Source: Escherichia phage PE37
Direction: 5' to 3' (one strand)
DNA: 64,000 nt
Sequence record: NC_054929.1
The position numbers and the translations under genes are program-made. Below the pieces are notes generated by a model that saw nothing but the letters and a program-made list of their open reading frames with translations, was not told the DNA's origin and searched no databases. Positions 1,214-56,749 of the stretch are shown here, piece after piece. The first letter of the stretch is position 1; each line of letters opens with the position of its first letter.

Positions 1214-1822
1214 ATGAAAATGCAAAGTGATTTCAATTCAATGTTTGAAGAGTTCCAAAGACAGGTTGATGTTCCAGACCAATTATTAAATGCTCTTAAA
1301 CGTATGGCAGAAGGACGTAATTATTATTGGGGTTCTTCATATGAAACTGTTGAAAGTCTTTCTGGAAGATTTTCTAGAGGTAAAAAGTCTTTAATACGTC
1401 CTGGAATACTTATTAACAGTATTGAATCAATTCATTTATTAACATGCGATTTTGACGTTGAATTTACTGATTTTGTTTCTCCTGAATGGACGGTCTGTTA
1501 TTTAAACGACGATTATGATTATCTTGGCGTTTATAGTTTAAGTGATGCATGGTTTAAACGTAATTTACAAAAGTCAAATTTATTCTATATTGATACTACT
1601 GTAAAATTTCAGGGCAAGAAATATTTCTTTACTCTTATAGTTGACTCTGAAACAAAATATGAAAATAAACGTATTCTTAGTAAAAAGAATATCTTAACTA
1701 CTGTCGATGATCTTTTTGATAAATTCGTAGAAAATCCCAATTTTGAAAGCGATTTATTATTAGAAAAATTTGTTAAGGAATGTAGAGAATATGTCAAAAC
1801 CATCACTATACCTTCCAAGTAA
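1214..1822 (+). CDS. hypothetical protein (e.5 position)
   Basis: ATG+SD GGAG; 202 aa. Confidence 0.65.
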   Translation: MKMQSDFNSMFEEFQRQVDVPDQLLNALKRMAEGRNYYWGSSYETVESLSGRFSRGKKSLIRPGILINSIESIHLLTCDFDVEFTDFVSPEWTVCYLNDDYDYLGVYSLSDAWFKRNLQKSNLFYIDTTVKFQGKKYFFTLIVDSETKYENKRILSKKNILTTVDDLFDKFVENPNFESDLLLEKFVKECREYVKTITIPSK

Positions 1823-2183
1823 ACCGTTGAAGTATGAATTAAAGCGTCAGATAATTTCTACTGATGTGTTAATAGGTCCTGTGGTAGCTGTATCATTTGT
1901 GATTCTGCTGATTGCTGGAATGGTTATAGACGTTATGACTGATATTGGATCTAATACAATATTTGCGTCAACGCTAATTCTTCCATTGGTAGTTCCGCTT
2001 TTATTAGTACCTATAAATTGGATAGGATATTGGTATCAAGGAAGACACTATCGTAAACGTGTACGTGATTGGAAAGCCCAGTGCAAAAAGATTAAAAAAG
2101 AACATCAGCTTAAACTTGCTGCGTATGAATTTGATGAAATTATGAAATTTGTTAAGGAATCACGATGCAAAAGCCAAAACTAA
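1791..2183 (+). CDS. membrane protein, e.x paralog family
   Basis: in-frame ATG at 1791; hydrophobic segments; C-terminal motif shared with neighbours. Confidence 0.55.
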   Translation: MSKPSLYLPSKPLKYELKRQIISTDVLIGPVVAVSFVILLIAGMVIDVMTDIGSNTIFASTLILPLVVPLLLVPINWIGYWYQGRHYRKRVRDWKAQCKKIKKEHQLKLAAYEFDEIMKFVKESRCKSQN

Positions 2184-2527
2184 ATAAAGCCAAATATTCG
2201 TTTCCAGAGGCACTATTAATTCTTGCCGTATCAGCATTTACAGCTCTTGCGGGTAGTCTTATTGGATTATTAATTGACTGTTTTATTTTAAACATCGACG
2301 GCACAGTAATTATAACAGAGGTTTGGAGTGAACTTCGTTATACTATAGCGATTTCATTATTTTCATTCTTTGGTACCATGTTATATTTTCATTATGATAA
2401 TTTTAAAATAAATTGGCAAAGAAAAAAAGATTACAAAATACAATTAAAAGAATATAATAGCTACATGTCTTATATTGAAAAAGAATCAATGGAAGAGTTT
2501 GTGAGTGATTGTAGGAAAATTAAATGA
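2165..2527 (+). CDS. membrane protein, e.x paralog family
   Basis: ATG; 2-3 TM segments; C-terminal ...DCRKIK. Confidence 0.6.
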   Translation: MQKPKLNKAKYSFPEALLILAVSAFTALAGSLIGLLIDCFILNIDGTVIITEVWSELRYTIAISLFSFFGTMLYFHYDNFKINWQRKKDYKIQLKEYNSYMSYIEKESMEEFVSDCRKIK

Positions 2528-3012
2528 TTTTAAAAACTCGCTGGTATGATTTAGATGACGGGGATGATGGCATTTCAGTTAATAGAGTTGACTGGAATGG
2601 CTGTTCCGAAGATATGAAAAATTTGCTGATTAGGGAGTTTAGAATGGGATATCAACCAGTTAAGCCATCTACTGCAACAGATGATAAATTCGTGTGTATT
2701 CATAATGGTCGCGCTAAATTAACGAACGCTGATTGGTTCACAGATAAAATTATGATTCTGTGGTATATTATTAGTCTTCCTGTGACATCATTCGTATTTT
2801 ACTTTTTTATAAAAAATCCAATGGACAGAATAGGAGATTGGATTCTTTTAACCATACTTGTTAATATTTTTACTGCAGCAATATTATCTGGGATATGGTA
2901 CACGTTCATTGAAATGCCATGGCGTTTACGCAGACAACAAAAGATTTTTGATGAAAAGAAATATACCCAAAATTTAAATAGCTTTATCACTGAATGCAGG
3001 AAATTAAAATGA
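2524..3012 (+). CDS. membrane protein, e.x paralog family (e.2 position)
   Basis: ATGA overlap with upstream gene; TM segments; C-terminal ...ECRKLK. Confidence 0.6.
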   Translation: MILKTRWYDLDDGDDGISVNRVDWNGCSEDMKNLLIREFRMGYQPVKPSTATDDKFVCIHNGRAKLTNADWFTDKIMILWYIISLPVTSFVFYFFIKNPMDRIGDWILLTILVNIFTAAILSGIWYTFIEMPWRLRRQQKIFDEKKYTQNLNSFITECRKLK

Positions 3013-3449
3013 AAACATTATCAGTTGGTATTATCTTTATGACAGAAGATAAAGATTTATTTATGGGTCGGGTTACTGGTTCTCGTAAGCCTGGAATGAT
3101 GGCACATCGCTGGGATATTCCAAAGGGCCGTGTAGAAAATTCTGATTTAAGCGCATTAGATGCAGCACGAAGAGAATGTTTAGAAGAGACTGGTTTTAGC
3201 AATTATAATCCAGACCTTCTAGAAGACCTAGGTGTATTTAAATATTCTAGTAATAAAGACTTACAGTTATTTTATTATACGATTCCAGTAGAGCATGAGA
3301 TGTTCAGAAATTGCCATTGCGAGTCTTATTTTGAAAATAAAGATGGTGTTATGATTCCAGAGATGGACGCTTTTGCTCTTATTCCTCATACTCAGTGGCA
3401 ATATGTGATGGGTCCTTCACTTTACCGAATAATGAACAACCTCTTTTAA
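3009..3449 (+). CDS. nudE: Nudix hydrolase NudE
   Basis: Nudix box G-x5-E-x7-REC-x-EETG; immediately upstream of e as in T4; start 3009 vs 2994 uncertain. Confidence 0.75.
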   Translation: MKTLSVGIIFMTEDKDLFMGRVTGSRKPGMMAHRWDIPKGRVENSDLSALDAARRECLEETGFSNYNPDLLEDLGVFKYSSNKDLQLFYYTIPVEHEMFRNCHCESYFENKDGVMIPEMDAFALIPHTQWQYVMGPSLYRIMNNLF

Positions 3450-4020
<571 letters not shown>

Positions 4021-4039
4021 AGTTACTTGGAGGGATAAA

Positions 4040-4456
4040 ATGACTCGTATTAATTTGACTTTAGTATCTGAACTTGCTGATCAACATTTAATCGCAGAAT
4101 ACCGTGAATTGCCACGTGTTTTTGGTATAGTTCGTAAACATGTGGCAAATGGTAAACGGGTTAAAGATTTTAAAATATCTTCCGAGTTTATTTTAGGTTC
4201 TGGTCATGTTACGTTCTTTTACGATAAGTTAGAATTTTTGCGAAAGCGTCAATCAGACATTATAACGGAATGCTTAAAACGCGGGTTTAGTATAAAAGAT
4301 ACTGAAGTTCCTGACATCGGCGATATTCCAGCAGAATGGAAAAATGATTATAATCCATGCAAATCAGCTATTAAATTGAGTCAACAACGACTCAATGAAA
4401 AAATTTTAATGAAGCCACACTGGTACAAGTATTACGGCAAAAATATTTACATTTAA
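4040..4456 (+). CDS. denV: endonuclease V, pyrimidine-dimer DNA glycosylase
   Basis: 138 aa, [17 protein letters not shown]..., matches T4 endo V. Confidence 0.95.
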
Positions 4457-4465
4457 AGGAAACAC

Positions 4466-4939
4466 ATGAAAACATATCAAGAATTTATTACTGAAGCAGC
4501 TATTAATTCTCAAATTATTGCTGAATCTTTTACTGATCTTTTGAAATTTAAAAAAGGTCAAAAAATCACTGCTGTATTGGATGATGGTACAGAAGTTGAG
4601 ATGGATGTACAGGGATATAATTATGCAGTAGATGGAAAACTGTATAATAAATCTCATGCTAAATTTGATTCATTTGACGACTTTGTTAATACAGTTGAAG
4701 ATGAAAAAACTCGTCGATCCATTGCAACTGGTGATGCTAAGGTTCTTATGGCACATGGTCATGAACGCATTCGCGCTAAACAGAATAAAATGGGCGAAGA
4801 TAATTTCGCATTAGTTGGTTATCAATCTGGTAAACAAACTTATGGTTATCAGCGTACTGCTACCATGTATAATAAAAATGGTAAAATTGCCTTTGTGAAT
4901 AGTAAGGGTTCTATTCAGTACGTTAAATCGTTCAAATAA
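4466..4939 (+). CDS. capsid internal protein (Ip family)
   Basis: N-terminal capsid-targeting sequence MKTYQEFITE with protease site after E; 157 aa, length differs from T4 ipII/ipIII. Confidence 0.75.
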   Translation: MKTYQEFITEAAINSQIIAESFTDLLKFKKGQKITAVLDDGTEVEMDVQGYNYAVDGKLYNKSHAKFDSFDDFVNTVEDEKTRRSIATGDAKVLMAHGHERIRAKQNKMGEDNFALVGYQSGKQTYGYQRTATMYNKNGKIAFVNSKGSIQYVKSFK

Positions 4940-5073
4940 TATGGGAACAGCCTGGACCTCATTTGAGGTATTCCCGCCAACCTGTAATAAGGTCGAGCCC
5001 AAGCGCGGTAATGGGTAAATACAGAAATGGACAATTCATGCGCCATGGAATGGCCCAAACTTAGAGAGAAGAA

Positions 5074-5613
5074 ATGAGAACATTTTTAACTGGTCCTTAT
5101 CTATCCCTGATGAATGCTTTTACACACCATTCTGATGCTAGAGTAGAAGAAATTTGTAAAAACGAATATATCCCGCCATTTGAAGACTTACTTAAGCAGT
5201 ATTGCACACTTCGTATAGATGGTGGACGTCAATCCGGTAAATCAACTGCTGTGACTAACTTTGCTGCTAATTGGCTGTATGATGGTGGAACAGTTATTGT
5301 TCTTTCTAATACTTCAGCTTACGCTAAAATTTCTGCAAATAACATTAAAAAAGAATTTTCTCGTTATTCTGGCGATGATATTCGATTCCGCTTATTTACC
5401 GATTCTGTCCGTAGTTTTATCGGTAATAAAGGAAGCAAGTTCAGAGGTTTATCGCTTTCACGAATTTTGTATATAATTGATGAGCCTGTTAAAGCTCCTG
5501 ATATGGATAAAATTTACGATATTCATATTGAAACTGTACATTACTGTTGCAATAGTAAATGCTGCATTGGTGGTATTACTCGTCCACAGTTTTTCATAAT
5601 CGGAATGCAATGA
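5074..5613 (+). CDS. small P-loop NTPase (vs.8 position)
   Basis: Walker A GGRQSGKST, Walker B ILYIIDEP. Confidence 0.6.
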   Translation: MRTFLTGPYLSLMNAFTHHSDARVEEICKNEYIPPFEDLLKQYCTLRIDGGRQSGKSTAVTNFAANWLYDGGTVIVLSNTSAYAKISANNIKKEFSRYSGDDIRFRLFTDSVRSFIGNKGSKFRGLSLSRILYIIDEPVKAPDMDKIYDIHIETVHYCCNSKCCIGGITRPQFFIIGMQ

Positions 5614-5939
5614 TGACAGACACACAGCTTTTCGAATATCTTTATTTTTCGCCAAAAACTATTAAAAATAAATTGGTGAATCATTTTGAAATTTTGGCAA
5701 ATAATAACGTCTTGAGCGAATTTTATCCTAAGCAATACAAATTACAAAAAGGCGTATTCAAAGGATGCAGAGTTTTGTGCACTGCTCCTAATGCAAGATT
5801 AATGAATAAAATTCCATATTTTACCATGGAATTTATTGATGGACCTTTTAAAGGACTAATCACCCAAAGTTTAATGGCATATGATTCTGAGCCATTTTTA
5901 ATTAAAGAACAGTCTTGGATAAATTTATTTTCTAATTGA
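5610..5939 (+). CDS. hypothetical protein
   Basis: ATGATGA overlap with upstream stop. Confidence 0.5.
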   Translation: MMTDTQLFEYLYFSPKTIKNKLVNHFEILANNNVLSEFYPKQYKLQKGVFKGCRVLCTAPNARLMNKIPYFTMEFIDGPFKGLITQSLMAYDSEPFLIKEQSWINLFSN

Positions 5940-5945
5940 GGTTAT

Positions 5946-6308
5946 ATGAAAGCATATCAAATTCTTGAAGGCACACATAAAGGTACTATTTATTTTGAAG
6001 ATGGTATTCAAGCACGAATTATTGTCTCCAAAACCTTTAAAGAGGACTCTTTTGTAGACCCAGAAATTTTCTACGGTTTGCATGCCCGTGAAATTGAAAT
6101 TGAACCACAGCCTACAGTTAAAATTGAAGGTGGTCAACACCTGAACGTTAACGTTCTGCGTCGTGAAACTCTGGAAGATGCAGTTAAGCATCCGGAAAAA
6201 TATCCGCAGCTGACCATCCGTGTATCCGGTTATGCAGTTCGCTTTAACTCTCTGACTCCGGAACAGCAGCGCGACGTTATCGCTCGTACCTTTACTGAGA
6301 GCTTGTAA
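5946..6308 (+). CDS. autonomous glycyl-radical cofactor (GrcA/YfiD-like)
   Basis: C-terminal [29 protein letters not shown] glycyl-radical motif; 3' half has E. coli-like codon usage. Confidence 0.85.
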
Positions 6309-6529
6309 TGGCAAAGATAATTATTGAAGGTTCTAAAGATGTGTTAAATGCTTTCGCCGAGTGGTTTAGTAATTCAGGCGAACAGCAATTTAATGAAGCG
6401 TGGACCATGGGTGATATTGATGGAATTTATCCTACGACAGAAATTTCTGTTCAAGGATATGGCATTCATGAACCTATTCGTTTAGTTGAATATGATTTAT
6501 GTACTGGTGAGGAAGTCAAATATGATTGA
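6308..6529 (+). CDS. hypothetical protein
   Basis: TAATG overlap; 73 aa. Confidence 0.55.
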   Translation: MAKIIIEGSKDVLNAFAEWFSNSGEQQFNEAWTMGDIDGIYPTTEISVQGYGIHEPIRLVEYDLCTGEEVKYD

Positions 6530-6788
6530 AGACATTAAGGGTTATAAGCCACATACTGAAGAGAAAATCGGTAAAGTGAATGCTATCAAAGATGCTGAAG
6601 TTCGTTTAGGACTTATCTTTGACGCTTTATATGATGAATTCTGGGAAGCACTAGATAATTGTGAAGACTGTGAATTCGCGAAGAATTATGCTGAAAGTCT
6701 CGATCAGTTAACTATTGCTAAAACGAAACTCAAAGAAGCCAGTATGTGGGCTTGTCGTGCTGTGTTCCAACCAGAGGAAAAATATTAA
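6522..6788 (+). CDS. hypothetical protein at vs.4 position (candidate Acb2-like cyclic-nucleotide sponge)
   Basis: in-frame ATG at 6522; assignment by synteny only. Confidence 0.5.
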
Positions 6789-7066
6789 TGGCTCAATTAA
6801 GCGCAGGGTTTGGTTATGAGTATTATACTGCCCCTCGTCGTGCATCTGTTGCTCCTAAGAAAATTCAAAGTCTTGATGACTTCCAAGAAGTAGTCCGTAA
6901 AGCTTTTCAGGACTATGCACGTTATCTTAAAGAAGATTCACAGGACTGTCTCGAAGAAGATGAAATTGCTTACTATACGCAGCGTCTTGAACAGCTCAAA
7001 AATCTACATGAGGTTCGTGCAGAAGTTTCAAAGTCTATGAATAAATTGATTAGATTTAAAGAATAA
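6788..7066 (+). CDS. hypothetical protein
   Basis: in-frame ATG at 6788 overlapping upstream stop. Confidence 0.5.
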
Positions 7067-7105
7067 CTGTTTACTTTTCCTCTTGACTGTGGTATAATTT
7101 TTCTA
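7060..7105 (+). promoter_or_regulatory. early promoter
   Basis: GTTTAC 7069-7074, 18 bp, TATAAT 7093-7098. Confidence 0.7.
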
Positions 7106-7125
7106 TCAGTTAAGAGGAGAATAAC

Positions 7126-7587
7126 ATGACTATCAATACAGAAGTTTTTATCCGTCGAAATAAGCTTCGTCGTCACTTTGAGTCGGAGTTTCGTCAAATT
7201 AACAATGAGATTCGTGAGGCATCAAAAGCAGCAGGGGTCTCATCGTTTCATCTAAAATATTCTCAGCATCTTCTTGATCGTGCAATTCAACGGGAGATTG
7301 ATGAGACATATGTTTTTGAATTATTCCACAAAATAAAAGACCATGTTTTAGAAGTTAATGAATTCCTGAGTATGCCTCCGCGTCCTGACATTGACGAGGA
7401 TTTTATTGATGGGGTTGAATATCGTCCTGGGCGTTTGGAAATTACAGATGGAAATCTTTGGCTTGGATTTACAGTTTGTAAGCCTAATGAGAAGTTCAAA
7501 AACCCGTCACTTCAATGCAGGATGGCAATTATCAACAGTCGTCGTTTACCAGGAAAGGCTTCTAAAGCAGTAATTAAAACTCAATGA
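7126..7587 (+). CDS. regB: endoribonuclease RegB
   Basis: 153 aa, MTINTEVFIRRNKLRRHFESEFRQ..., matches T4 RegB; SD GAGGAG. Confidence 0.9.
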   Translation: MTINTEVFIRRNKLRRHFESEFRQINNEIREASKAAGVSSFHLKYSQHLLDRAIQREIDETYVFELFHKIKDHVLEVNEFLSMPPRPDIDEDFIDGVEYRPGRLEITDGNLWLGFTVCKPNEKFKNPSLQCRMAIINSRRLPGKASKAVIKTQ

Positions 7588-7594
7588 GGTAAGC

Positions 7595-8140
7595 ATGAGA
7601 AAAGCACTACTCGCTGGTCTATTGGCCATTTCAATGATGGCACATAGCTCCGAGCATACTTTCAGTAATGTCCAACTCGATAACATGCGTTACGCGTATC
7701 AATTCGGGGAACAATTTTCTAAGGATGGAAAATATAAAACACACAAAAATATCCACAAGAGCGGATTAGGTCATATAATGGCTGCTATTTTATGGCAAGA
7801 AAGCTCTGGCGGAGTTAATTTAAAATCTAAACCAAAGCATCACGCCTACGGAATGTTCCAAAATTATTTGCCTACTATGCGAGCAAGAGTTAAGGAACTT
7901 GGTTATAATATGACCGATGCTGAAATAAAAAGAATGTTGAATAAACGGTCCAATTCAGCTTCCTGGGCGTACATTGAACTTTCTTATTGGTTAAATATAC
8001 ATAAGGGCGATATAAGAAAAGCAATATCCTCTTATAATTCGGGATGGAATGTTAAAGCAGGTTCTAAATATGCTTCTGAAGTCCTAGAAAAGGCTAATTA
8101 CCTTAAAAATAATAAACTTTTGGAAATAGTAAATGACTAA
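7595..8140 (+). CDS. secreted lytic transglycosylase-like protein (vs.1 position)
   Basis: signal peptide; SLT-like motifs (WQESSG, AYGMFQ). Confidence 0.65.
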   Translation: MRKALLAGLLAISMMAHSSEHTFSNVQLDNMRYAYQFGEQFSKDGKYKTHKNIHKSGLGHIMAAILWQESSGGVNLKSKPKHHAYGMFQNYLPTMRARVKELGYNMTDAEIKRMLNKRSNSASWAYIELSYWLNIHKGDIRKAISSYNSGWNVKAGSKYASEVLEKANYLKNNKLLEIVND

Positions 8141-8474
8141 AATTTTGGTTTTATGTATAGGATTAATTTCATTTTCTGCGTTAGCAAATACATCATATAC
8201 TGAAATTAGAGAGTATGTAAACCGTACTGCCGCGGATTATTGCGGGAAAAATAAAGCATGCCAAGCTGAATTTGCGCAGAAATTAATATATGCATATAAA
8301 GACGGAGAAAGAGATAAATCAAGCAGATACAAAAATGATACATTGTTAAAACGATATGCTAAAAAGTGGAATACCTTAGAATGTTCAGTTGCGGAGGAGA
8401 AAGATAAAGCCGCTTGTCATTCAATGGTTGACCGTTTAGTAGATTCTTATAATCGAGGATTGAGTACTAGATGA
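8133..8474 (+). CDS. vs: valyl-tRNA synthetase modifier-like protein
   Basis: 113 aa, position between regB/vs.1 and tk as in T4; signal-like N-terminus. Confidence 0.55.
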   Translation: MTKILVLCIGLISFSALANTSYTEIREYVNRTAADYCGKNKACQAEFAQKLIYAYKDGERDKSSRYKNDTLLKRYAKKWNTLECSVAEEKDKAACHSMVDRLVDSYNRGLSTR

Positions 8475-8950
8475 TTGTAAAATATATCAAGGGCGATATT
8501 GTCGCCCTATTTCTTCAAGGTAATATTATTGCGCACGGGTGCAATTGTTTTCATACTATGGGTTCAGGTGTAGCGGGTCAATTAGCAAGAGCCTATCCTA
8601 AAATTTTAGAAATAGATAAAACCACTACTGAGTACGGTTCTCGTGATAAATTAGGCGATATGTCTATTGTTTTTAAACATAATCCTACGGGATTTGGTAT
8701 ATGCTATAACCTGTATACGCAATACGAACCGGGTCCTAATCTTGATTATGGTGCTTTAGTAAACTGCATGATAGAATTAAATCTACAGGCAGAAACCCTT
8801 TTGTTTAAACCAGTAATTTACATTCCACGCATAGGTTGTGGTATTGCTGGCGGTGATTGGGATAAGGTTTCTAAATTAATCGACATGTTTACTCCTGATA
8901 TTGATTTAATAGTGGTGGATTATGAAAGTACATTACCCGCATCCGTTTGA
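8471..8950 (+). CDS. macro-domain protein (ADP-ribose binding/processing)
   Basis: GDIV...NIIAHGCNCFHTMGSGVAGQLA macro-domain signature. Confidence 0.6.
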   Translation: MIVKYIKGDIVALFLQGNIIAHGCNCFHTMGSGVAGQLARAYPKILEIDKTTTEYGSRDKLGDMSIVFKHNPTGFGICYNLYTQYEPGPNLDYGALVNCMIELNLQAETLLFKPVIYIPRIGCGIAGGDWDKVSKLIDMFTPDIDLIVVDYESTLPASV

Positions 8951-9134
8951 TCCTAAAAACAAAGTGGAAATTATTCGTCAATGGGAACGCATTTGCCGTA
9001 CTAAATGCCCAATTAATAGTCCACATGATGTAGATAAAGACTATATTGGAACATTCGTTGAATATACCTTTATTGATAGGAAAGGTCGTAAACAACATGT
9101 AGAAGAATATTGCTTAAAGGTTACATGGTTATGA
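8922..9134 (+). CDS. hypothetical protein
   Basis: ATG; 70 aa. Confidence 0.5.
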   Translation: MKVHYPHPFDPKNKVEIIRQWERICRTKCPINSPHDVDKDYIGTFVEYTFIDRKGRKQHVEEYCLKVTWL

Positions 9135-9337
9135 GCCAAACTAGTATTCTTAAAAATGCTCATTGTGAAAAGTGTGAATGGCCAGTTGTTTTTGCTTTAT
9201 GTAATGATGAAATGGCTTGTGATTTCGATTATTGGTGCTATTGTTCCAATAAAGGATGCATCAATCATAAAGGTGAAGGATTTTATTCAGGATTTTATCC
9301 TTATCCTGATTTCGTTAAAGAAGGTAAACCGAAATGA
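9131..9337 (+). CDS. Cys-rich small protein (probable zinc binding)
   Basis: ATGA overlap; CEKCEW...CDFDYWCYC...GC. Confidence 0.5.
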   Translation: MSQTSILKNAHCEKCEWPVVFALCNDEMACDFDYWCYCSNKGCINHKGEGFYSGFYPYPDFVKEGKPK

Positions 9338-9507
9338 ATAGTTTTGAGTTACAATATGAAGTGTTACGTGAGCTTGATAATTTAATTGAACTCGCTGCTA
9401 ATAAAGGTTTTGCCATTGGAATCGGTCAAAAAGATACTGACCATTTAACTACGGAAATATTTAAGCAAAAGCGAATTATTTTAAAACTCCTGGAAATTAA
9501 TATATGA
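9334..9507 (+). CDS. small hypothetical protein (57 aa)
   Basis: ATGA overlaps at both ends; not in ORF track. Confidence 0.45.
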   Translation: MNSFELQYEVLRELDNLIELAANKGFAIGIGQKDTDHLTTEIFKQKRIILKLLEINI

Positions 9508-9689
9508 GTCTGAGTAAAGAACAAAAAGATAAATTGTTTGAGCTTATCCATGAACTTCTAGATGAGCATGCAGAAGCAAACACCTTTTATGATGAATACG
9601 GCCCGCTATCTCCCGAACAACAAGAAGAATTTGCTGACCGGTTTGATAAGAAAGAAAACGAATTAATAGCTTATGTGAATACGCTTTAA
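9504..9689 (+). CDS. hypothetical acidic protein
   Basis: ATG; 61 aa. Confidence 0.5.
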   Translation: MSLSKEQKDKLFELIHELLDEHAEANTFYDEYGPLSPEQQEEFADRFDKKENELIAYVNTL

Positions 9690-9698
9690 GAAGGTGAT

Positions 9699-10280
9699 AT
9701 GGCGAGTTTAATTTTTACTTATGCAGCAATGAATGCTGGAAAATCTGCTTCTCTTTTGACTGCTGCACATAATTATAAAGAACGTGGAATGAGTGTATTA
9801 GTTCTTAAGCCTGCTATTGATACTCGCGATTCTGTCTGTGAAGTTGTTTCTCGCATTGGAATTAAACAGGAAGCGAATATTATTACAGATGATATGGATA
9901 TTTTCGAGTTCTATAAATGGGCTGAAGCACAAAAAGATATTCATTGTGTATTTGTAGATGAAGCTCAGTTTTTAAAAACTGAACAAGTGCATCAATTGAG
10001 CCGAATTGTTGATACATATAATGTTCCTGTTATGGCTTATGGATTAAGGACTGATTTCGCTGGAAAATTGTTTGAAGGTTCTAAAGAACTTTTAGCGATT
10101 GCAGATAAACTTATTGAACTAAAGGCAGTTTGTCATTGCGGCAAAAAAGCGATTATGACAGCTCGATTAATGGAAGATGGAACACCAGTTAAAGAAGGTA
10201 ATCAAATCTGTATTGGTGATGAAATTTATGTTTCTTTGTGCAGAAAACATTGGAATGAATTAACTAAAAAGCTCGGTTAG
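9699..10280 (+). CDS. tk: thymidine kinase
   Basis: 193 aa, MASLIFTYAAMNAGKSASLL..., P-loop plus C-terminal zinc ribbon; matches T4 Tk. Confidence 0.95.
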   Translation: MASLIFTYAAMNAGKSASLLTAAHNYKERGMSVLVLKPAIDTRDSVCEVVSRIGIKQEANIITDDMDIFEFYKWAEAQKDIHCVFVDEAQFLKTEQVHQLSRIVDTYNVPVMAYGLRTDFAGKLFEGSKELLAIADKLIELKAVCHCGKKAIMTARLMEDGTPVKEGNQICIGDEIYVSLCRKHWNELTKKLG

Positions 10281-10289
10281 TGCAAAAGT

Positions 10290-10297
10290 TATAAATA
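10290..10297 (+). promoter_or_regulatory. late promoter TATAAATA
   Basis: exact TATAAATA about 26 nt upstream of ATG 10323. Confidence 0.5.
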
Positions 10298-10322
10298 GGT
10301 TTATCTAACTAAAGGGGTATAT

Positions 10323-10535
10323 ATGCTACAATTAACTGAAAAGCAACTTCGCAATCTTACTGTTCTTCAATTAGATGAAATTCGTAGGGAAGTTGGAAAT
10401 ATCATTTCAGCTTTGCGTCGAGAAGTATCACTCAACCAATCTCCGGCAGACTATACTAGATTGCGAAATTTTGAAAAATACCTTGATAAAGTTAAGGCCG
10501 TGCATCGGCATAAAGTAAATACAGGACAAAAATGA
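10323..10535 (+). CDS. hypothetical protein
   Basis: ATG+SD GGGGTAT; 70 aa. Confidence 0.55.
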
Positions 10536-12422: not shown

Positions 12423-12965
12423 ATGAAAGCTGTAATTGAAACAACTGATTTGTTCGGTAATCTAGTTATCGAAAAACGCGGTAATGTATATGTTCTGACG
12501 CAGGAAGACGATAGTATTATTATTCTTCCTATGGAACTGGCTGCGATTTTATCTTATGCTCCCTCAAGAGTTACCGGTGTAACTAATATTACAGACGACC
12601 TCCAAGTTCGTTTTTATCGTGGCCTTTACGGCGGTAATATTGAAACTGAATTTATGTGTCTTTCTATCAACAATTGGGCAACATTCGTTGCCAAGGTGAA
12701 AGAATTCTTGGAATCTGAAACAGTCGAAACACCCGAAAAGGCTAAACTTCAATGGGCTAAAGATCGCGGTGCTAGCATTATTAATCCAGTAGCTGCAAAT
12801 TATACTACGACTTTGGATGTCAAGACTTCTTATGAAGATGGCGATGTCGTACTTGTTCGCCAAATTGATGATTCTCGAGCACATATTGTCACATTTACCA
12901 AAGATGAAGCTATTGCACTAAAGACTTATCTTGATTCTGTCATTCCAACTATGATTTCAAAGTGA
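12423..12965 (+). CDS. hypothetical protein (paralog pair member 1)
   Basis: in-frame ATG at 12423; C-terminal EAIALKTYLDSVIPTM resembles next gene. Confidence 0.55.
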   Translation: MKAVIETTDLFGNLVIEKRGNVYVLTQEDDSIIILPMELAAILSYAPSRVTGVTNITDDLQVRFYRGLYGGNIETEFMCLSINNWATFVAKVKEFLESETVETPEKAKLQWAKDRGASIINPVAANYTTTLDVKTSYEDGDVVLVRQIDDSRAHIVTFTKDEAIALKTYLDSVIPTMISK

Positions 12966-42901: not shown

Positions 42902-43642
42902 ATGATTAGTGACTCTATGACAGTTGAAGAAATCCGTCTTCATTTGGGGCTTGCATTAAAAGAAAAAGATTTCGTAGTTGATAAAACCGGTGTTAAAACT
43001 ATTGAAATTATTGGCGCATCATTTGTAGCAGATGAACCGTTTATTTTTGGCGCTCTTAATGATGAATACATTCAGCGTGAACTTGAATGGTATAAATCTA
43101 AGAGCTTGTTTGTTAAAGATATTCCAGGTGAAACACCAAAGATTTGGCAGCAGGTAGCATCTTCTAAAGGCGAAATTAACTCGAATTATGGTTGGGCTAT
43201 TTGGTCAGAAGATAACTATGCCCAGTATGATATGTGTTTAGCTGAACTTGGTCAAAATCCTGATTCTCGACGTGGTATCATGATTTATACTCGTCCATCC
43301 ATGCAATTTGACTACAATAAAGATGGTATGTCAGATTTCATGTGTACGAATACCGTACAATACTTGATTCGTGACAAGAAAATCAATGCGGTTGTTAACA
43401 TGAGAAGCAATGATTGCTGGGCAGGCTATCGTAATGATTATGCATGGCAAAAATACGTATTAGATAAATTAGTATCTGATTTGAATGCAGGCGACCCATC
43501 GCGGCAATATAAAGCAGGTTCTATTATATGGAACGTTGGAAGTCTTCATGTGTACGAAAATCAGTTTTATTTAGTTGACCATTGGTGGAACACTGGTGAA
43601 ACTCATATTGCTAAAAAGGATTATACTGGAAAATGGAAGTAA
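42902..43642 (+). CDS. 42: dCMP hydroxymethylase gp42
   Basis: 246 aa; thymidylate-synthase-like fold; size and position match T4 gp42. Confidence 0.88.
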   Translation: MISDSMTVEEIRLHLGLALKEKDFVVDKTGVKTIEIIGASFVADEPFIFGALNDEYIQRELEWYKSKSLFVKDIPGETPKIWQQVASSKGEINSNYGWAIWSEDNYAQYDMCLAELGQNPDSRRGIMIYTRPSMQFDYNKDGMSDFMCTNTVQYLIRDKKINAVVNMRSNDCWAGYRNDYAWQKYVLDKLVSDLNAGDPSRQYKAGSIIWNVGSLHVYENQFYLVDHWWNTGETHIAKKDYTGKWK

Positions 43643-44274
43643 ATGCGCCACATGTTTATAAGTATAAACATCCTAAAACTAAAAAGTGGTATATAGGAAG
43701 TCATGATGGTCACAACCCGAATTATGATGGTTCGGGTGTAGTTTGGCAACATGCTAAAAAGAAATATGGAATAAAATCCTTTAATAAAGAAATATTATAT
43801 GAAGGACCAATGTTTAGACAGGTTGAAGAAATTATTTTAACTTGTTTAGATGCTGCTAATTGTCCGGATTCATATAATTTAAAGAATGAAGCATGGGGAG
43901 GAAGTTTTCCAGGCAAATTAAATGGAATGTACGGTAAAAAACTATCTCCAGAAGAAAGATATAAGTGCGGAAATGCCTTTCGTGGAATCAAGCGTCCTGA
44001 TCATTCTAAAAGAATGAAAGGCGAAGGTAATCCAATGTATGGTAAAAATGAGCAAGCATATGGAATTATAAATCGAGCAAAGGAAAATTCTGGTAAAACT
44101 TATGAAGAAATTTTTGGCGCAGAAAAAGCTAAAATAATTAAAGAAACGATGTCTAAAAATCGTAAAGGAAAACCTCATAATTTGATAGAAAAAATATGTC
44201 CGTATTGCGGACTAAAAGGACGTGGGCCAAATATGACAAGATACCATTTTGACAAATGTAAGGCACTTAAATGA
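43633..44274 (+). CDS. GIY-YIG homing endonuclease, Seg-like (free-standing)
   Basis: N-terminal YKYKHPKTKKWYIGS (GIY-YIG variant), NUMOD3-like repeats, C-terminal CPYC zinc finger. Confidence 0.7.
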   Translation: MEVNAPHVYKYKHPKTKKWYIGSHDGHNPNYDGSGVVWQHAKKKYGIKSFNKEILYEGPMFRQVEEIILTCLDAANCPDSYNLKNEAWGGSFPGKLNGMYGKKLSPEERYKCGNAFRGIKRPDHSKRMKGEGNPMYGKNEQAYGIINRAKENSGKTYEEIFGAEKAKIIKETMSKNRKGKPHNLIEKICPYCGLKGRGPNMTRYHFDKCKALK

Positions 44275-49001: not shown

Positions 49002-49637
49002 ATGATTTATTATATGCACAAAAATCCACCGTTTAAATACGGTAAATTTCCTGATGCACAATGTTATAATATAACACCTGATGAAAATAACCGTGGATAT
49101 CTTATTGGCACAATTTTTGTAATTGTTAAAGATAACGAAATCGTTGCCTGGGCAGATTTTAAAGGTACAACATATGATGTTAATCCGGTGCCTTTCACAT
49201 ATTACAATATAATGGATTTGGCGTACGATTATAATTGGTTTAATCATGACACGTTGGCTCCTCATATTGAAGGTGTAGGATTTGACATCTCTTATTCTAG
49301 TTACTCGTTGTGTCCTATGAGCCGAGCTCATAGAGAGCCTGAATATTTTTCATTTCGTCGGCGTGTAGACTTTAAACGCAGCACAGAGTATGTCGGTGGA
49401 ATATTTGTTAAAGATAATCGAATTACTCGCATTATTTATCCTTTGGGCGGTGGTCAAAAAGATATTGATGTTGATTTAGACTTTACTGAAAACATCATTA
49501 ATCATATTGCTTCTGTGTATTTTGATATTGATCACAAAATTGTAATATGTGGATATGAATTACCATCAGAAAAACAGTCTAAAGTAAATGTTTCTATTGA
49601 TGACCAAATTTTTAATGCTTTTATGAATAGAGGTTAA
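49002..49637 (+). CDS. hypothetical protein (61.2 position)
   Basis: ATG; 211 aa. Confidence 0.6.
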   Translation: MIYYMHKNPPFKYGKFPDAQCYNITPDENNRGYLIGTIFVIVKDNEIVAWADFKGTTYDVNPVPFTYYNIMDLAYDYNWFNHDTLAPHIEGVGFDISYSSYSLCPMSRAHREPEYFSFRRRVDFKRSTEYVGGIFVKDNRITRIIYPLGGGQKDIDVDLDFTENIINHIASVYFDIDHKIVICGYELPSEKQSKVNVSIDDQIFNAFMNRG

Positions 49638-55526: not shown

Positions 55527-56150
55527 ATGATTATTAATCCTGCAGATGTTGAACAGTTATCTATAAAAGCTGAAAGCGTTGATTTTCAATATGATATGTA
55601 TAAAAAGGTCTGTGAAAAATTTACTGACTTTGAACAGTCAGTTCTTTGGCAGTGTATGGAAGCCAAAAAGAATGAAGCTCTTCATCGGCAGTTGAATAAA
55701 ATCATTAAAAAGCATTTAACTAAATCGCCTTATCAATTATATCGTGGTATATCAAAATCGACAAAAGAACTTATTAAAGATTTACAAGTTGGAGAAGTGT
55801 TTTCAACGAACAGGGTAGATTCATTTACTACTAGTTTGCATACAGCGTGTTCTTTTTCTTATGCTGAATATTTCACTGAAACAATACTTCGTTTAAAAAC
55901 TGATAAAGCTTTTAATTACTCTGACCATATCAGCGATATTATACTTTCTTCTCCTAATACTGAGTTTAAGTACACGTATGAAGACACTGATGGATTAGAT
56001 TCAGAGCGTACTGATAACTTAATGATGATTGTACATGAACAAGAATGGATGATTCCAATTGGAAAGTATAGAATAACTTCTATTTCAAAAGAAAAATTAC
56101 ATGATTCATTTGGAACATTTAAAGTTTATGATATTGAGGTAGTTGAATGA
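55527..56150 (+). CDS. modB: ADP-ribosyltransferase ModB
   Basis: 207 aa; ART motifs R (LYRG), STS-like, E-x-E (EQEWMIP); tandem with modA. Confidence 0.8.
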   Translation: MIINPADVEQLSIKAESVDFQYDMYKKVCEKFTDFEQSVLWQCMEAKKNEALHRQLNKIIKKHLTKSPYQLYRGISKSTKELIKDLQVGEVFSTNRVDSFTTSLHTACSFSYAEYFTETILRLKTDKAFNYSDHISDIILSSPNTEFKYTYEDTDGLDSERTDNLMMIVHEQEWMIPIGKYRITSISKEKLHDSFGTFKVYDIEVVE

Positions 56151-56749
56151 AATACTCAGTAATGCAACTAAAAGATTTTAAAATAAAATCAATGGATGCA
56201 TCGGTGCGTGCTTCTATTCGTGAAGAATTACTTTCTGAAGGGTTTAATTTATCTGAAATTGAACTTTTAATTCATTGTATTACTAATAAGCCAGATGACC
56301 ATACTTGGTTAAATGAAATAATCAAATCTCGTTTGGTTCCAAACGATAAACCTCTTTGGAGAGGTGTTCCAGTCGAGACTAAGCAGGTGTTAAATCAAGG
56401 AATTGATATTATTACATTTGATAAAGTCGTATCAGCTTCATATGATAAAAATATAGCTCTACATTTTGCTTCCGGTTTAGAGTATAACACGCAAGTTATT
56501 TTTGAATTCAAAGCTCCTATGGTATTCAATTTTCAGGAGTATGCTATAAAAGCTCTACGCTGTAAAGAATACAATCCAAACTTTAAGTTTCCGGATAGCC
56601 ATCGTTATCGTAATATGGAATTAGTTTCAGATGAACAAGAAGTAATGATACCAGCTGGAAGTGTATTTAGAATTGCAGATAGATATGAGTACAAAAAGTA
56701 TTCAACATACACTATCTATACTCTTGATTTTGAAGGATTTAATCTATAA
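56147..56749 (+). CDS. modA: ADP-ribosyltransferase ModA
   Basis: 200 aa; motifs LWRG, SAS, EQEVMIP; ATGA overlap. Confidence 0.8.
   Translation: MKYSVMQLKDFKIKSMDASVRASIREELLSEGFNLSEIELLIHCITNKPDDHTWLNEIIKSRLVPNDKPLWRGVPVETKQVLNQGIDIITFDKVVSASYDKNIALHFASGLEYNTQVIFEFKAPMVFNFQEYAIKALRCKEYNPNFKFPDSHRYRNMELVSDEQEVMIPAGSVFRIADRYEYKKYSTYTIYTLDFEGFNL

Follow-up and report, generated by a model that had tools for sequence, protein, structure and literature searches.

Gene context of tk.4

The window analysed here is the whole 64,000-nucleotide stretch of Escherichia phage PE37, a T4-like Tequatrovirus, and is oriented opposite to the usual T4 map. The open reading frame at 8471-8950, originally predicted from the sequence as a gene among the early genes, reads from an ATG to a stop codon on the + strand and encodes 159 aa. 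It occupies the slot between vs and tk.3 and is the positional ortholog of T4 tk.4. The order regB-vs.1-vs-tk.4-tk.3-tk is common to the window, T4 and PP01, and these neighbours confirm the placement among the early genes. The features of the region are:

7070..7098, + strand: sigma-70-type promoter-like site just 5' of regB (TTTACT-17-TATAAT with TG; consensus scan, 10/12 matches)
7126-7587: regB, neighbour
7595-8140: vs.1, neighbour
8133-8474: vs, neighbour (phrog_1256 match)
8471..8950, + strand: tk.4/adfM ortholog, CDS of a stand-alone macro-domain protein including the stop codon (159 aa, ATG start)
8471..8474, + strand: overlap of tk.4 start and vs stop, ATGA (read from the sequence)
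8922..8950, + strand: out-of-frame overlap of the tk.4 3' end and the tk.3 start, 29 nt (from the ORF list)
8922-9134: tk.3, neighbour (phrog_2008 match)
9699-10280: tk, neighbour

A GAGGA is read 11 nt 5' of the tk.4 start, at 8455-8459; together with the ATGA overlap it suggests that translation of tk.4 is likely coupled to that of vs. At the other end, the overlap with tk.3 comprises 29 nt in PE37 and in Dhakavirus IME281 and only 4 nt in T4, and the PE37 gene, unlike that of T4, carries a 9-codon 3' extension overlapping tk.3. The overlap codes for the C-terminal tail of Tk.4, in which pLDDT is below 50 at residues 157-159. A hairpin is located at 8490-8508, inside the tk.4 coding region. 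The scan of 6000-10500 for promoters and terminators gave no excess over shuffled sequence (18 versus 16.6 promoters, 6 versus 3.1 terminators). The site at 7070-7098 is a weak candidate for an early promoter of regB-vs.1-vs-tk.4, because promoter-like sites in the region are no more numerous than in shuffled sequence.

The 2.8-kb stretch around tk.4 is about 98% identical to hundreds of Escherichia and Shigella phages, and the best matches of the first 25 kb of the window are at about 96% identity. The median identity of the proteins shared between the window and T4 (n=108) is 97.3%. Phage FL33 encodes a protein identical to PE37 Tk.4, copies at at least 90% identity were found in 311 phage records, and about 2,800 phage records, spread over many phage groups, contain homologs.

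Macro-domain fold and active site

PE37 Tk.4 is a macro domain, as had been predicted from its N-terminal motif. The protein matches Pfam Macro (PF01661) with 33.1 bits (gathering cut-off 22; E=5.8e-8), spanning positions 2-117 of the 118-position model, and PHROG 335 ('phosphatase') with E=1.6e-71. The AlphaFold2 model, built from 102 homologs, has a mean pLDDT of 94.1 and a pTM of 0.89, is unreliable only at the last three residues, and displays the three-layer alpha/beta macro fold with alternating strands and helices and glycine-rich ADP-ribose-binding loops. Foldseek against the PDB returned TARG1, Poa1p, BT1257 and DarG at E values of about 1e-8 to 4e-10, with TARG1 as the best match; yeast Poa1p is among the top matches by both sequence and fold. 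The nearest structural neighbours belong to the ALC1-like class (TARG1/DarG/Poa1p/SCO6735), not to the MacroD, viral or PARG classes. Like PE37 Tk.4, TARG1 (OARD1) and Poa1p are compact macro domains of about 150 aa that stand alone (Foldseek E about 1e-9 to 4e-10), but they are eukaryotic and have other physiological substrates. The motif on which the prediction was based is present as G8-D9-I10-V11 and N18-I-I-A-H22-G-C-N25-C-F-H-T-M-G-S-G-V-A-G36.

Equivalog assignment with NCBIfam was rejected, as it yielded only weak sub-threshold matches to the DarG and O-acetyl-ADP-ribose deacetylase (YmdB-type) models. The DarG model NF048014 scored 27.8 bits against a cut-off of 250 and was covered at positions 2-142 of 338; with 159 aa against these 338 positions, PE37 Tk.4 is without the second (DarT-binding) domain.

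Conservation was counted over the 102 homologs, down to 38% identity. Invariant residues are H22, G23, N25, C26, G33, A35, D49, N80, Y82, Q84, P119 and W130, all of them kept in both the PE37 and the T4 allele; G122 and G124 are present in every homolog with a residue there (101/102). The active-site features are:

8534..8548, + strand: H22-G23-C24-N25-C26, substrate-side active-site motif (H22, G23, N25 and C26 invariant)
8558..8578, + strand: M30-G36 (MGSGVAG), first glycine-rich ADP-ribose-binding loop (G33 and A35 invariant, M30 at least 90% conserved)
8708..8722, + strand: N80-L-Y82-T-Q84, Gln at the catalytic-lysine position (hhalign; N80, Y82 and Q84 invariant)
8825..8860, + strand: P119-W130 (PRIGCGIAGGDW), phosphate-binding loop (P119 and W130 invariant)

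N25 aligns with N23 of PhiKZ AdfM, and H22 with the histidine changed in the Poa1p H23A structure. The H-x-x-N spacing of H22 and N25 equals that of H24 and N27 of SCO6735 (5E3B), for which the mapping of H24, N27 and Q85 is based on motif spacing and the BT1257 alignment, the C-terminal loop being the part aligned directly. The MGSGVAG loop corresponds in the alignments to MGKGIA in DarG and MGAGIA in TARG1, and PRIGCGIAGGDW differs little from PRIGCGLAGGTW in SCO6735 and PRIGCGLAGGKW in BT1257. In the hhalign alignment N-L-Y-T-Q stands opposite N-F-P-T-K of DarG and L-I-T-K of TARG1. Q84 thereby takes the place of the catalytic lysine, K80 in Thermus aquaticus DarG and K84 in TARG1, and is glutamine in 102/102 homologs. 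A126 lies opposite the catalytic D125 of TARG1 in a profile alignment whose TARG1 sequence agrees with the PDB alignment. The Lys84/Asp125 dyad of TARG1 is thus absent from PE37 Tk.4, which has Q84 and A126 there. Because of Q84 and A126, the Tk.4 family lacks the defining residues of the DarG and TARG1 mechanisms, and the low NCBIfam DarG score agrees with this. The original prediction is thus supported in its main point by the fold and the ADP-ribose-binding loops, with the caveat that glutamine replaces the DarG/TARG1 catalytic lysine.

SCO6735 has Gln85 at the lysine position; its Q85A variant is inactive and N27 is important. Q84, H22/N25 and G122/G124 place PE37 Tk.4 in this Gln-type subclass, and by alignment the T4-type AdfM family is glutamine-type and SCO6735-like, not a copy of the lysine-type DarG, which goes slightly beyond the literature. 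SCO6735 and BT1257 (2FG1/2AFC), 54% identical to each other, are Gln-type ALC1-like proteins with about 27-29% identity to PE37 Tk.4, but they serve bacteria in housekeeping or stress rather than phages in counter-defence. They also carry a 'mobile loop' with Lys89 and Lys93 that is about 5 residues longer than in DarG/TARG1 and roughly 6 residues longer than in Tk.4 (BT1257 has 6 residues inserted against the Tk.4 profile), and this lysine-bearing loop was proposed by the SCO6735 authors to clamp DNA. The loop is absent from PE37 Tk.4, in which Q84 to Y93 spans 10 residues, as in TARG1, with no lysine. Two possible discriminators were rejected. The length of the loop after Gln84 does not separate activities, since the loop is long in both the DNA-active SCO6735 and the phosphatase Adpp. 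Net charge fails as a test of DNA binding, PE37 Tk.4 being acidic (pI 5.0) like the DNA-active PhiKZ AdfM (pI 5.05).

The DarG macrodomain (5M3I, 5M31, 7OMU) and PhiKZ gp104, also named AdfM, are about 18-23% identical to PE37 Tk.4 and have the catalytic lysine (FPTK) where PE37 Tk.4 has glutamine (LYTQ); DarG has in addition a C-terminal DarT-binding domain that PE37 Tk.4 lacks. PhiKZ AdfM is lysine-type and DarG-like (E=9e-25 to DarG), and its relation to Tk.4 is remote (hhalign probability 95.6%, about 22% identity). Judged by sequence, the PhiKZ and T4 proteins named 'AdfM' are different branches of one class.

Mosaic structure of the PE37 allele

PE37 Tk.4 and T4 Tk.4 (NP_049723; 155 aa, versus 159 aa in PE37) share the slot between vs and tk.3 and are 57-58% identical (58% over the full length, E=1e-70), against 91-100% for the flanking genes, including regB (99%), vs.1 (100%), vs (96.5%) and tk (99.5%). 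Tk.4 has the fourth lowest identity to T4 among the 108 full-length shared proteins. With Tk.4 of Dhakavirus IME281 the identity is 92.5%, and the flanking genes of IME281 are 45-69% identical to those of the window; tk.3, which spans the 3' junction, is 73% identical to IME281. The scan of informative sites against T4 and IME281 gave the following segments:

8490..8965, no strand assigned: putative recombinant cassette, Dhakavirus-type tk.4 in a T4-type backbone (junctions about +/-10 nt)
up to about 8490: resembles T4
about 8495-8545: resembles IME281
about 8550-8590: resembles T4, short patch
about 8600-8965: resembles IME281
from about 8970: resembles T4

Because of this pattern along the window, the body of PE37 tk.4 looks like a Dhakavirus-type cassette that entered a Tequatrovirus backbone by recombination, the junctions lying at the gene ends. 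The phosphate loop reads GCGIAGGDW, the family consensus, in PE37 and GAGIGKGNW in T4. The imported allele is very likely functional, because it keeps every invariant residue and its phosphate loop is nearer to the family consensus than that of T4.

A second locus of the window was considered for context:

49002..49634, + strand: homolog of T4 61.2 (adfA), found by tblastn with T4 gp61.2 (78.7% over the full length)

This homolog is also unusually divergent from T4 (79%). The divergence of tk.4 and adfA fits the fast exchange that is general for counter-defence loci. As T-even phages are commonly mosaic, the tk.4 mosaic is not taken as proof of selection.

Probable anti-DarT function and alternative roles

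T4 tk.4 has been annotated with an 'A1pp phosphatase motif' since the 2000s, and several records of close relatives label the gene 'macro domain protein' or 'phosphatase'. In a HIDEN-SEQ preprint of November 2025, tk.4 was the single hit of a transposon screen on a DarTG2-expressing host, and a clean tk.4 knockout made T4 DarTG2-sensitive; the gene was renamed adfM because its deletion sensitises T4 to DarTG2, and removal of ADP-ribose from DNA by T4 AdfM was inferred by the authors (bioRxiv 10.1101/2025.11.20.689424). Literature searches turned up no study of T4 Tk.4 biochemistry. Both the gene and its function are known already from the literature and from database annotations. Among related proteins, PhiKZ AdfM removes DarT2-made ADP-ribose from DNA in vitro and is impaired by N23A, and SCO6735 outpaces DarG in cleaving the thymidine-ADP-ribose made by DarT and protects E. 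coli against DarT. Further anti-DarT factors occur in this phage lineage, namely adfA in the window and adfN in T4; adfA was named as an anti-DarT factor in earlier work (PMC11825919).

The PE37 gene is the T4 adfM ortholog, and its product probably strips phage DNA of the ADP-ribose placed by DarT2, using a glutamine-type mechanism like that of SCO6735. PE37 Tk.4 would be an early-expressed, stand-alone ALC1-like macro-domain enzyme, an orphan 'antitoxin' against DarTG2. Host DarT2 would use NAD+ to place ADP-ribose on thymidines of single-stranded phage DNA, by which replication would be blocked. PE37 Tk.4 would bind the ADP-ribose through the MGSGVAG and PRIGCGIAGGDW loops and the H22/N25 motif, with Gln84 positioning the distal ribose and the base. 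The ribose-thymine bond would be cleaved in a water-mediated, SCO6735-type reaction rather than by the DarG/TARG1 lysine mechanism, free ADP-ribose would be released, and the DNA would be restored. For the 58%-identical PE37 allele we infer both the same target as for T4 Tk.4 and this chemistry. That such a protein could erase defence-derived ADP-ribose marks had been part of the original prediction; erasure agrees with the genetics of the T4 ortholog, but glutamine occupies the position of the DarG/TARG1 lysine. Several findings speak against the anti-DarT reading: the PE37 allele differs from T4 Tk.4 at 42% of positions; the nearest biochemically tested homolog, at 39% identity, is an ADP-ribose-1''-phosphate phosphatase and not a DNA hydrolase; the DarG/TARG1 catalytic lysine and the SCO6735/BT1257 'mobile loop' are both absent; and the NCBIfam DarG score is far below its cut-off (27.8 bits versus 250).

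That homolog, Adpp of Vibrio phage Gary (KNV71_gp137), is much closer to PE37 Tk.4 than DarG is, and it speaks for the alternative that PE37 Tk.4 is mainly an ADP-ribose-1''-phosphate phosphatase (Adpp/Poa1p-like) or another hydrolase of small ADP-ribose derivatives, clearing the products of NAD+-degrading defences, e.g. aRES, or ADP-ribose-derived signals. According to a preprint of January 2026, Gary Adpp turns ADPR-1P into ADPR in vitro, and NARP1 (NARP1-AP), a pathway that rebuilds NAD+, needs it to overcome aRES defence. Adpp is 39% identical to PE37 Tk.4 (E=1e-26) and 35% to T4 Tk.4, and has the motifs HxCNCF, NxYxQ and IGCGLAGGDW in common with Tk.4. The rank of Poa1p among the top sequence and fold matches, the long-standing 'A1pp phosphatase' annotation of T4 Tk.4 and the view of Iyer et al. 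that phage Macro domains mostly act on small ADP-ribose derivatives point the same way. However, Adpp, which is known to act on a small molecule, has 7 extra residues after the Gln that are missing from Tk.4, and its gene is flanked by Adps and Namat, a three-gene order seen in Vibrio phages VPG01 and Gary but not at PE37 tk.4. Tblastn with the Gary proteins found no Adps or Namat (NARP1) gene in the 64-kb window, so that ADPR could not be recycled by the NARP1 route. The sole known phenotype of the T4 ortholog is moreover against DarTG2, which makes no ADPR-1P. A mainly phosphatase role, the most serious rival reading, is considered unlikely, and phosphatase and DNA activities need not exclude each other: macrodomains are often promiscuous, so both could coexist. 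The Tk.4 clade is nearer in sequence to Adpp (ADPR-1''P phosphatase) than to DarG, and it is likewise conceivable, though improbable, that it is a phage subfamily of its own, with Gln-type, short-loop macrodomains that are bifunctional or allele-specific in substrate.

Less weight is given to the remaining roles. A broad, TARG1-like eraser of protein or RNA ADP-ribose, with DNA as one substrate or a minor one, would suit TARG1 as the top Foldseek match and the hydrolysis of protein ADP-ribosylation by SCO6735, and RNA-targeting ADP-ribosyltransferase defences against T-even phages, e.g. CmdTAC, are described. The missing Lys84/Asp125 dyad of TARG1 argues against it, as does CmdTAC itself, to which T4 stays sensitive despite tk.4 (CmdTAC is reported to defend robustly against T-even phages), and such a role is quite unlikely. 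Still less probable is a non-catalytic protein that binds and blocks DarT2 ('interaction-inhibition') or sequesters ADP-ribose-containing molecules. Dead SCO6735 (Q85A), DarG (K80A) and TARG1 (K84A) inhibit DarT in vitro, SCO6735 most strongly, and replacement of the whole allele at tk.4 would suit adaptation to variable protein partners; but invariance of the catalytic-site residues over 102 homologs down to 38% identity argues for an enzyme, and the C-terminal DarT-binding domain of DarG is missing. The original prediction had further pointed to ModA/ModB ADP-ribosyltransferases in the same phage at 55527-56749. The two genes are present, in the order modB then modA:

55527-56150, + strand: modB, context (phrog_832, E=5e-42; 97.1% identical to T4 ModB)
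56147-56749, + strand: modA, context (phrog_832, E=2e-33; 98.5% identical to T4 ModA)

The presence of both genes, nearly identical to those of T4, would suit a role of PE37 Tk.4 in reversing or tuning the ADP-ribosylation that the phage itself performs on host proteins with Alt, ModA and ModB, but this analysis found no evidence linking tk.4 to ModA/ModB. Arginine is the residue modified by Alt, ModA and ModB. The linkages handled by the TARG1/DarG/SCO6735 class are ester-, phosphate- and thymidine-linked ADP-ribose, and the ALC1-like class is not known to act on arginine-ADP-ribose, although an arginine-specific macrodomain family is reported (Legionella MavL). Since tk.4 also lies 47 kb from modA/modB, outside their operon, was required in the T4 screen only with DarTG2 present, and has homologs in many phage groups, this role is extremely unlikely.

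With its probable anti-DarT role, PE37 Tk.4 makes PE37 the carrier of a macrodomain counter-defence gene tied to DarTG2 resistance, which is useful for host-range prediction and for the choice of therapeutic phages. The Gln-type class, the kinship with Adpp and the mobility of the cassette all add slightly to the literature; they refine the design of AdfM assays and mutations and leave the overall picture unchanged. Should the clade form a separate subfamily, the allele swap could reflect selection by host systems, with DarT2 variants, aRES-like NADases or defences sensing the macrodomain as candidate selectors, and neutral mosaicism as the alternative. Slightly beyond the literature, tk.4 alleles appear to travel between T-even genera as gene-sized cassettes.

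The tk.4 allele and its junctions

The macrodomain gene of Escherichia phage PE37, an ortholog of T4 tk.4/adfM located between vs and tk.3, encodes a protein with 92.5% amino acid identity to its counterpart in Dhakavirus IME281 (2501-2980 of the IME281 record). The IME281 genes flanking tk.4 are only 45-69% identical to their counterparts in the window, and the backbone around the window gene is 96-100% T4-like. On these identities, the gene body (8490-8965) is a Dhakavirus-type allele within a T4-like backbone, and both ends of the gene are sites of recombination junctions. The 5' junction lies at about the same position as the following feature:

8490-8508, terminator-like on both strands, GC-rich hairpin of 8 bp (AGGGCGATATTGTCGCCCT) with a T-rich run after it

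The hairpin is located within the 5' end of tk.4, spanning the codons for KGDIVAL, and its terminator-like character inside the gene is probably coincidental.

Two small ORFs are located between tk.3 and tk.2, where two hypothetical proteins are annotated in the record of phage PP01:

9110-9337, small ORF
9334-9507, small ORF

The adjoining tk.2 (9504-9689) shares just 54% identity with its T4 counterpart. The homolog of another anti-DarT factor, T4 61.2 (adfA; 49002-49634), is only 79% identical to T4, compared with a window median of 97%; therefore, a second DarT-related counter-defence gene is also unusually divergent.

Macrodomain homologs in Vibrio phages

Homologs of the Tk.4 macrodomain, with 37-39% identity to the window protein, were found in two Vibrio phages:

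VPG01, 3135-6146 of its record, locus with macrodomain homolog
Gary, 1629-4659 of its record, locus with macrodomain homolog

In both, the macrodomain gene has a ribose-phosphate pyrophosphokinase-like gene on one side and a nicotinamide phosphoribosyltransferase gene on the other. This three-gene arrangement is the NARP1-AP operon, which encodes the ADPR-1''P phosphatase Adpp as its macrodomain protein.

Gene content relative to T4

T4 SegF and SegA gave weak, partial matches (21-32% identity) to window positions 43630-44178, an indication that another GIY-YIG homing endonuclease is encoded here; T4 carries neither segF nor segA at the corresponding locus. The whole window was compared with T4 4-72 kb by tblastn. 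No match anywhere in the window was obtained for the T4 homing endonucleases mobB, mobC, mobD and I-TevII, for ipIII, tk.1, e.7 and 49.3, or for b-gt (beta-glucosyltransferase). The matches to mobD.1 (12426-12962) and ipII (4466-4738) were 48% and only 28% identical, respectively. Both the internal proteins and the DNA glucosylation of this phage may differ from those of T4.
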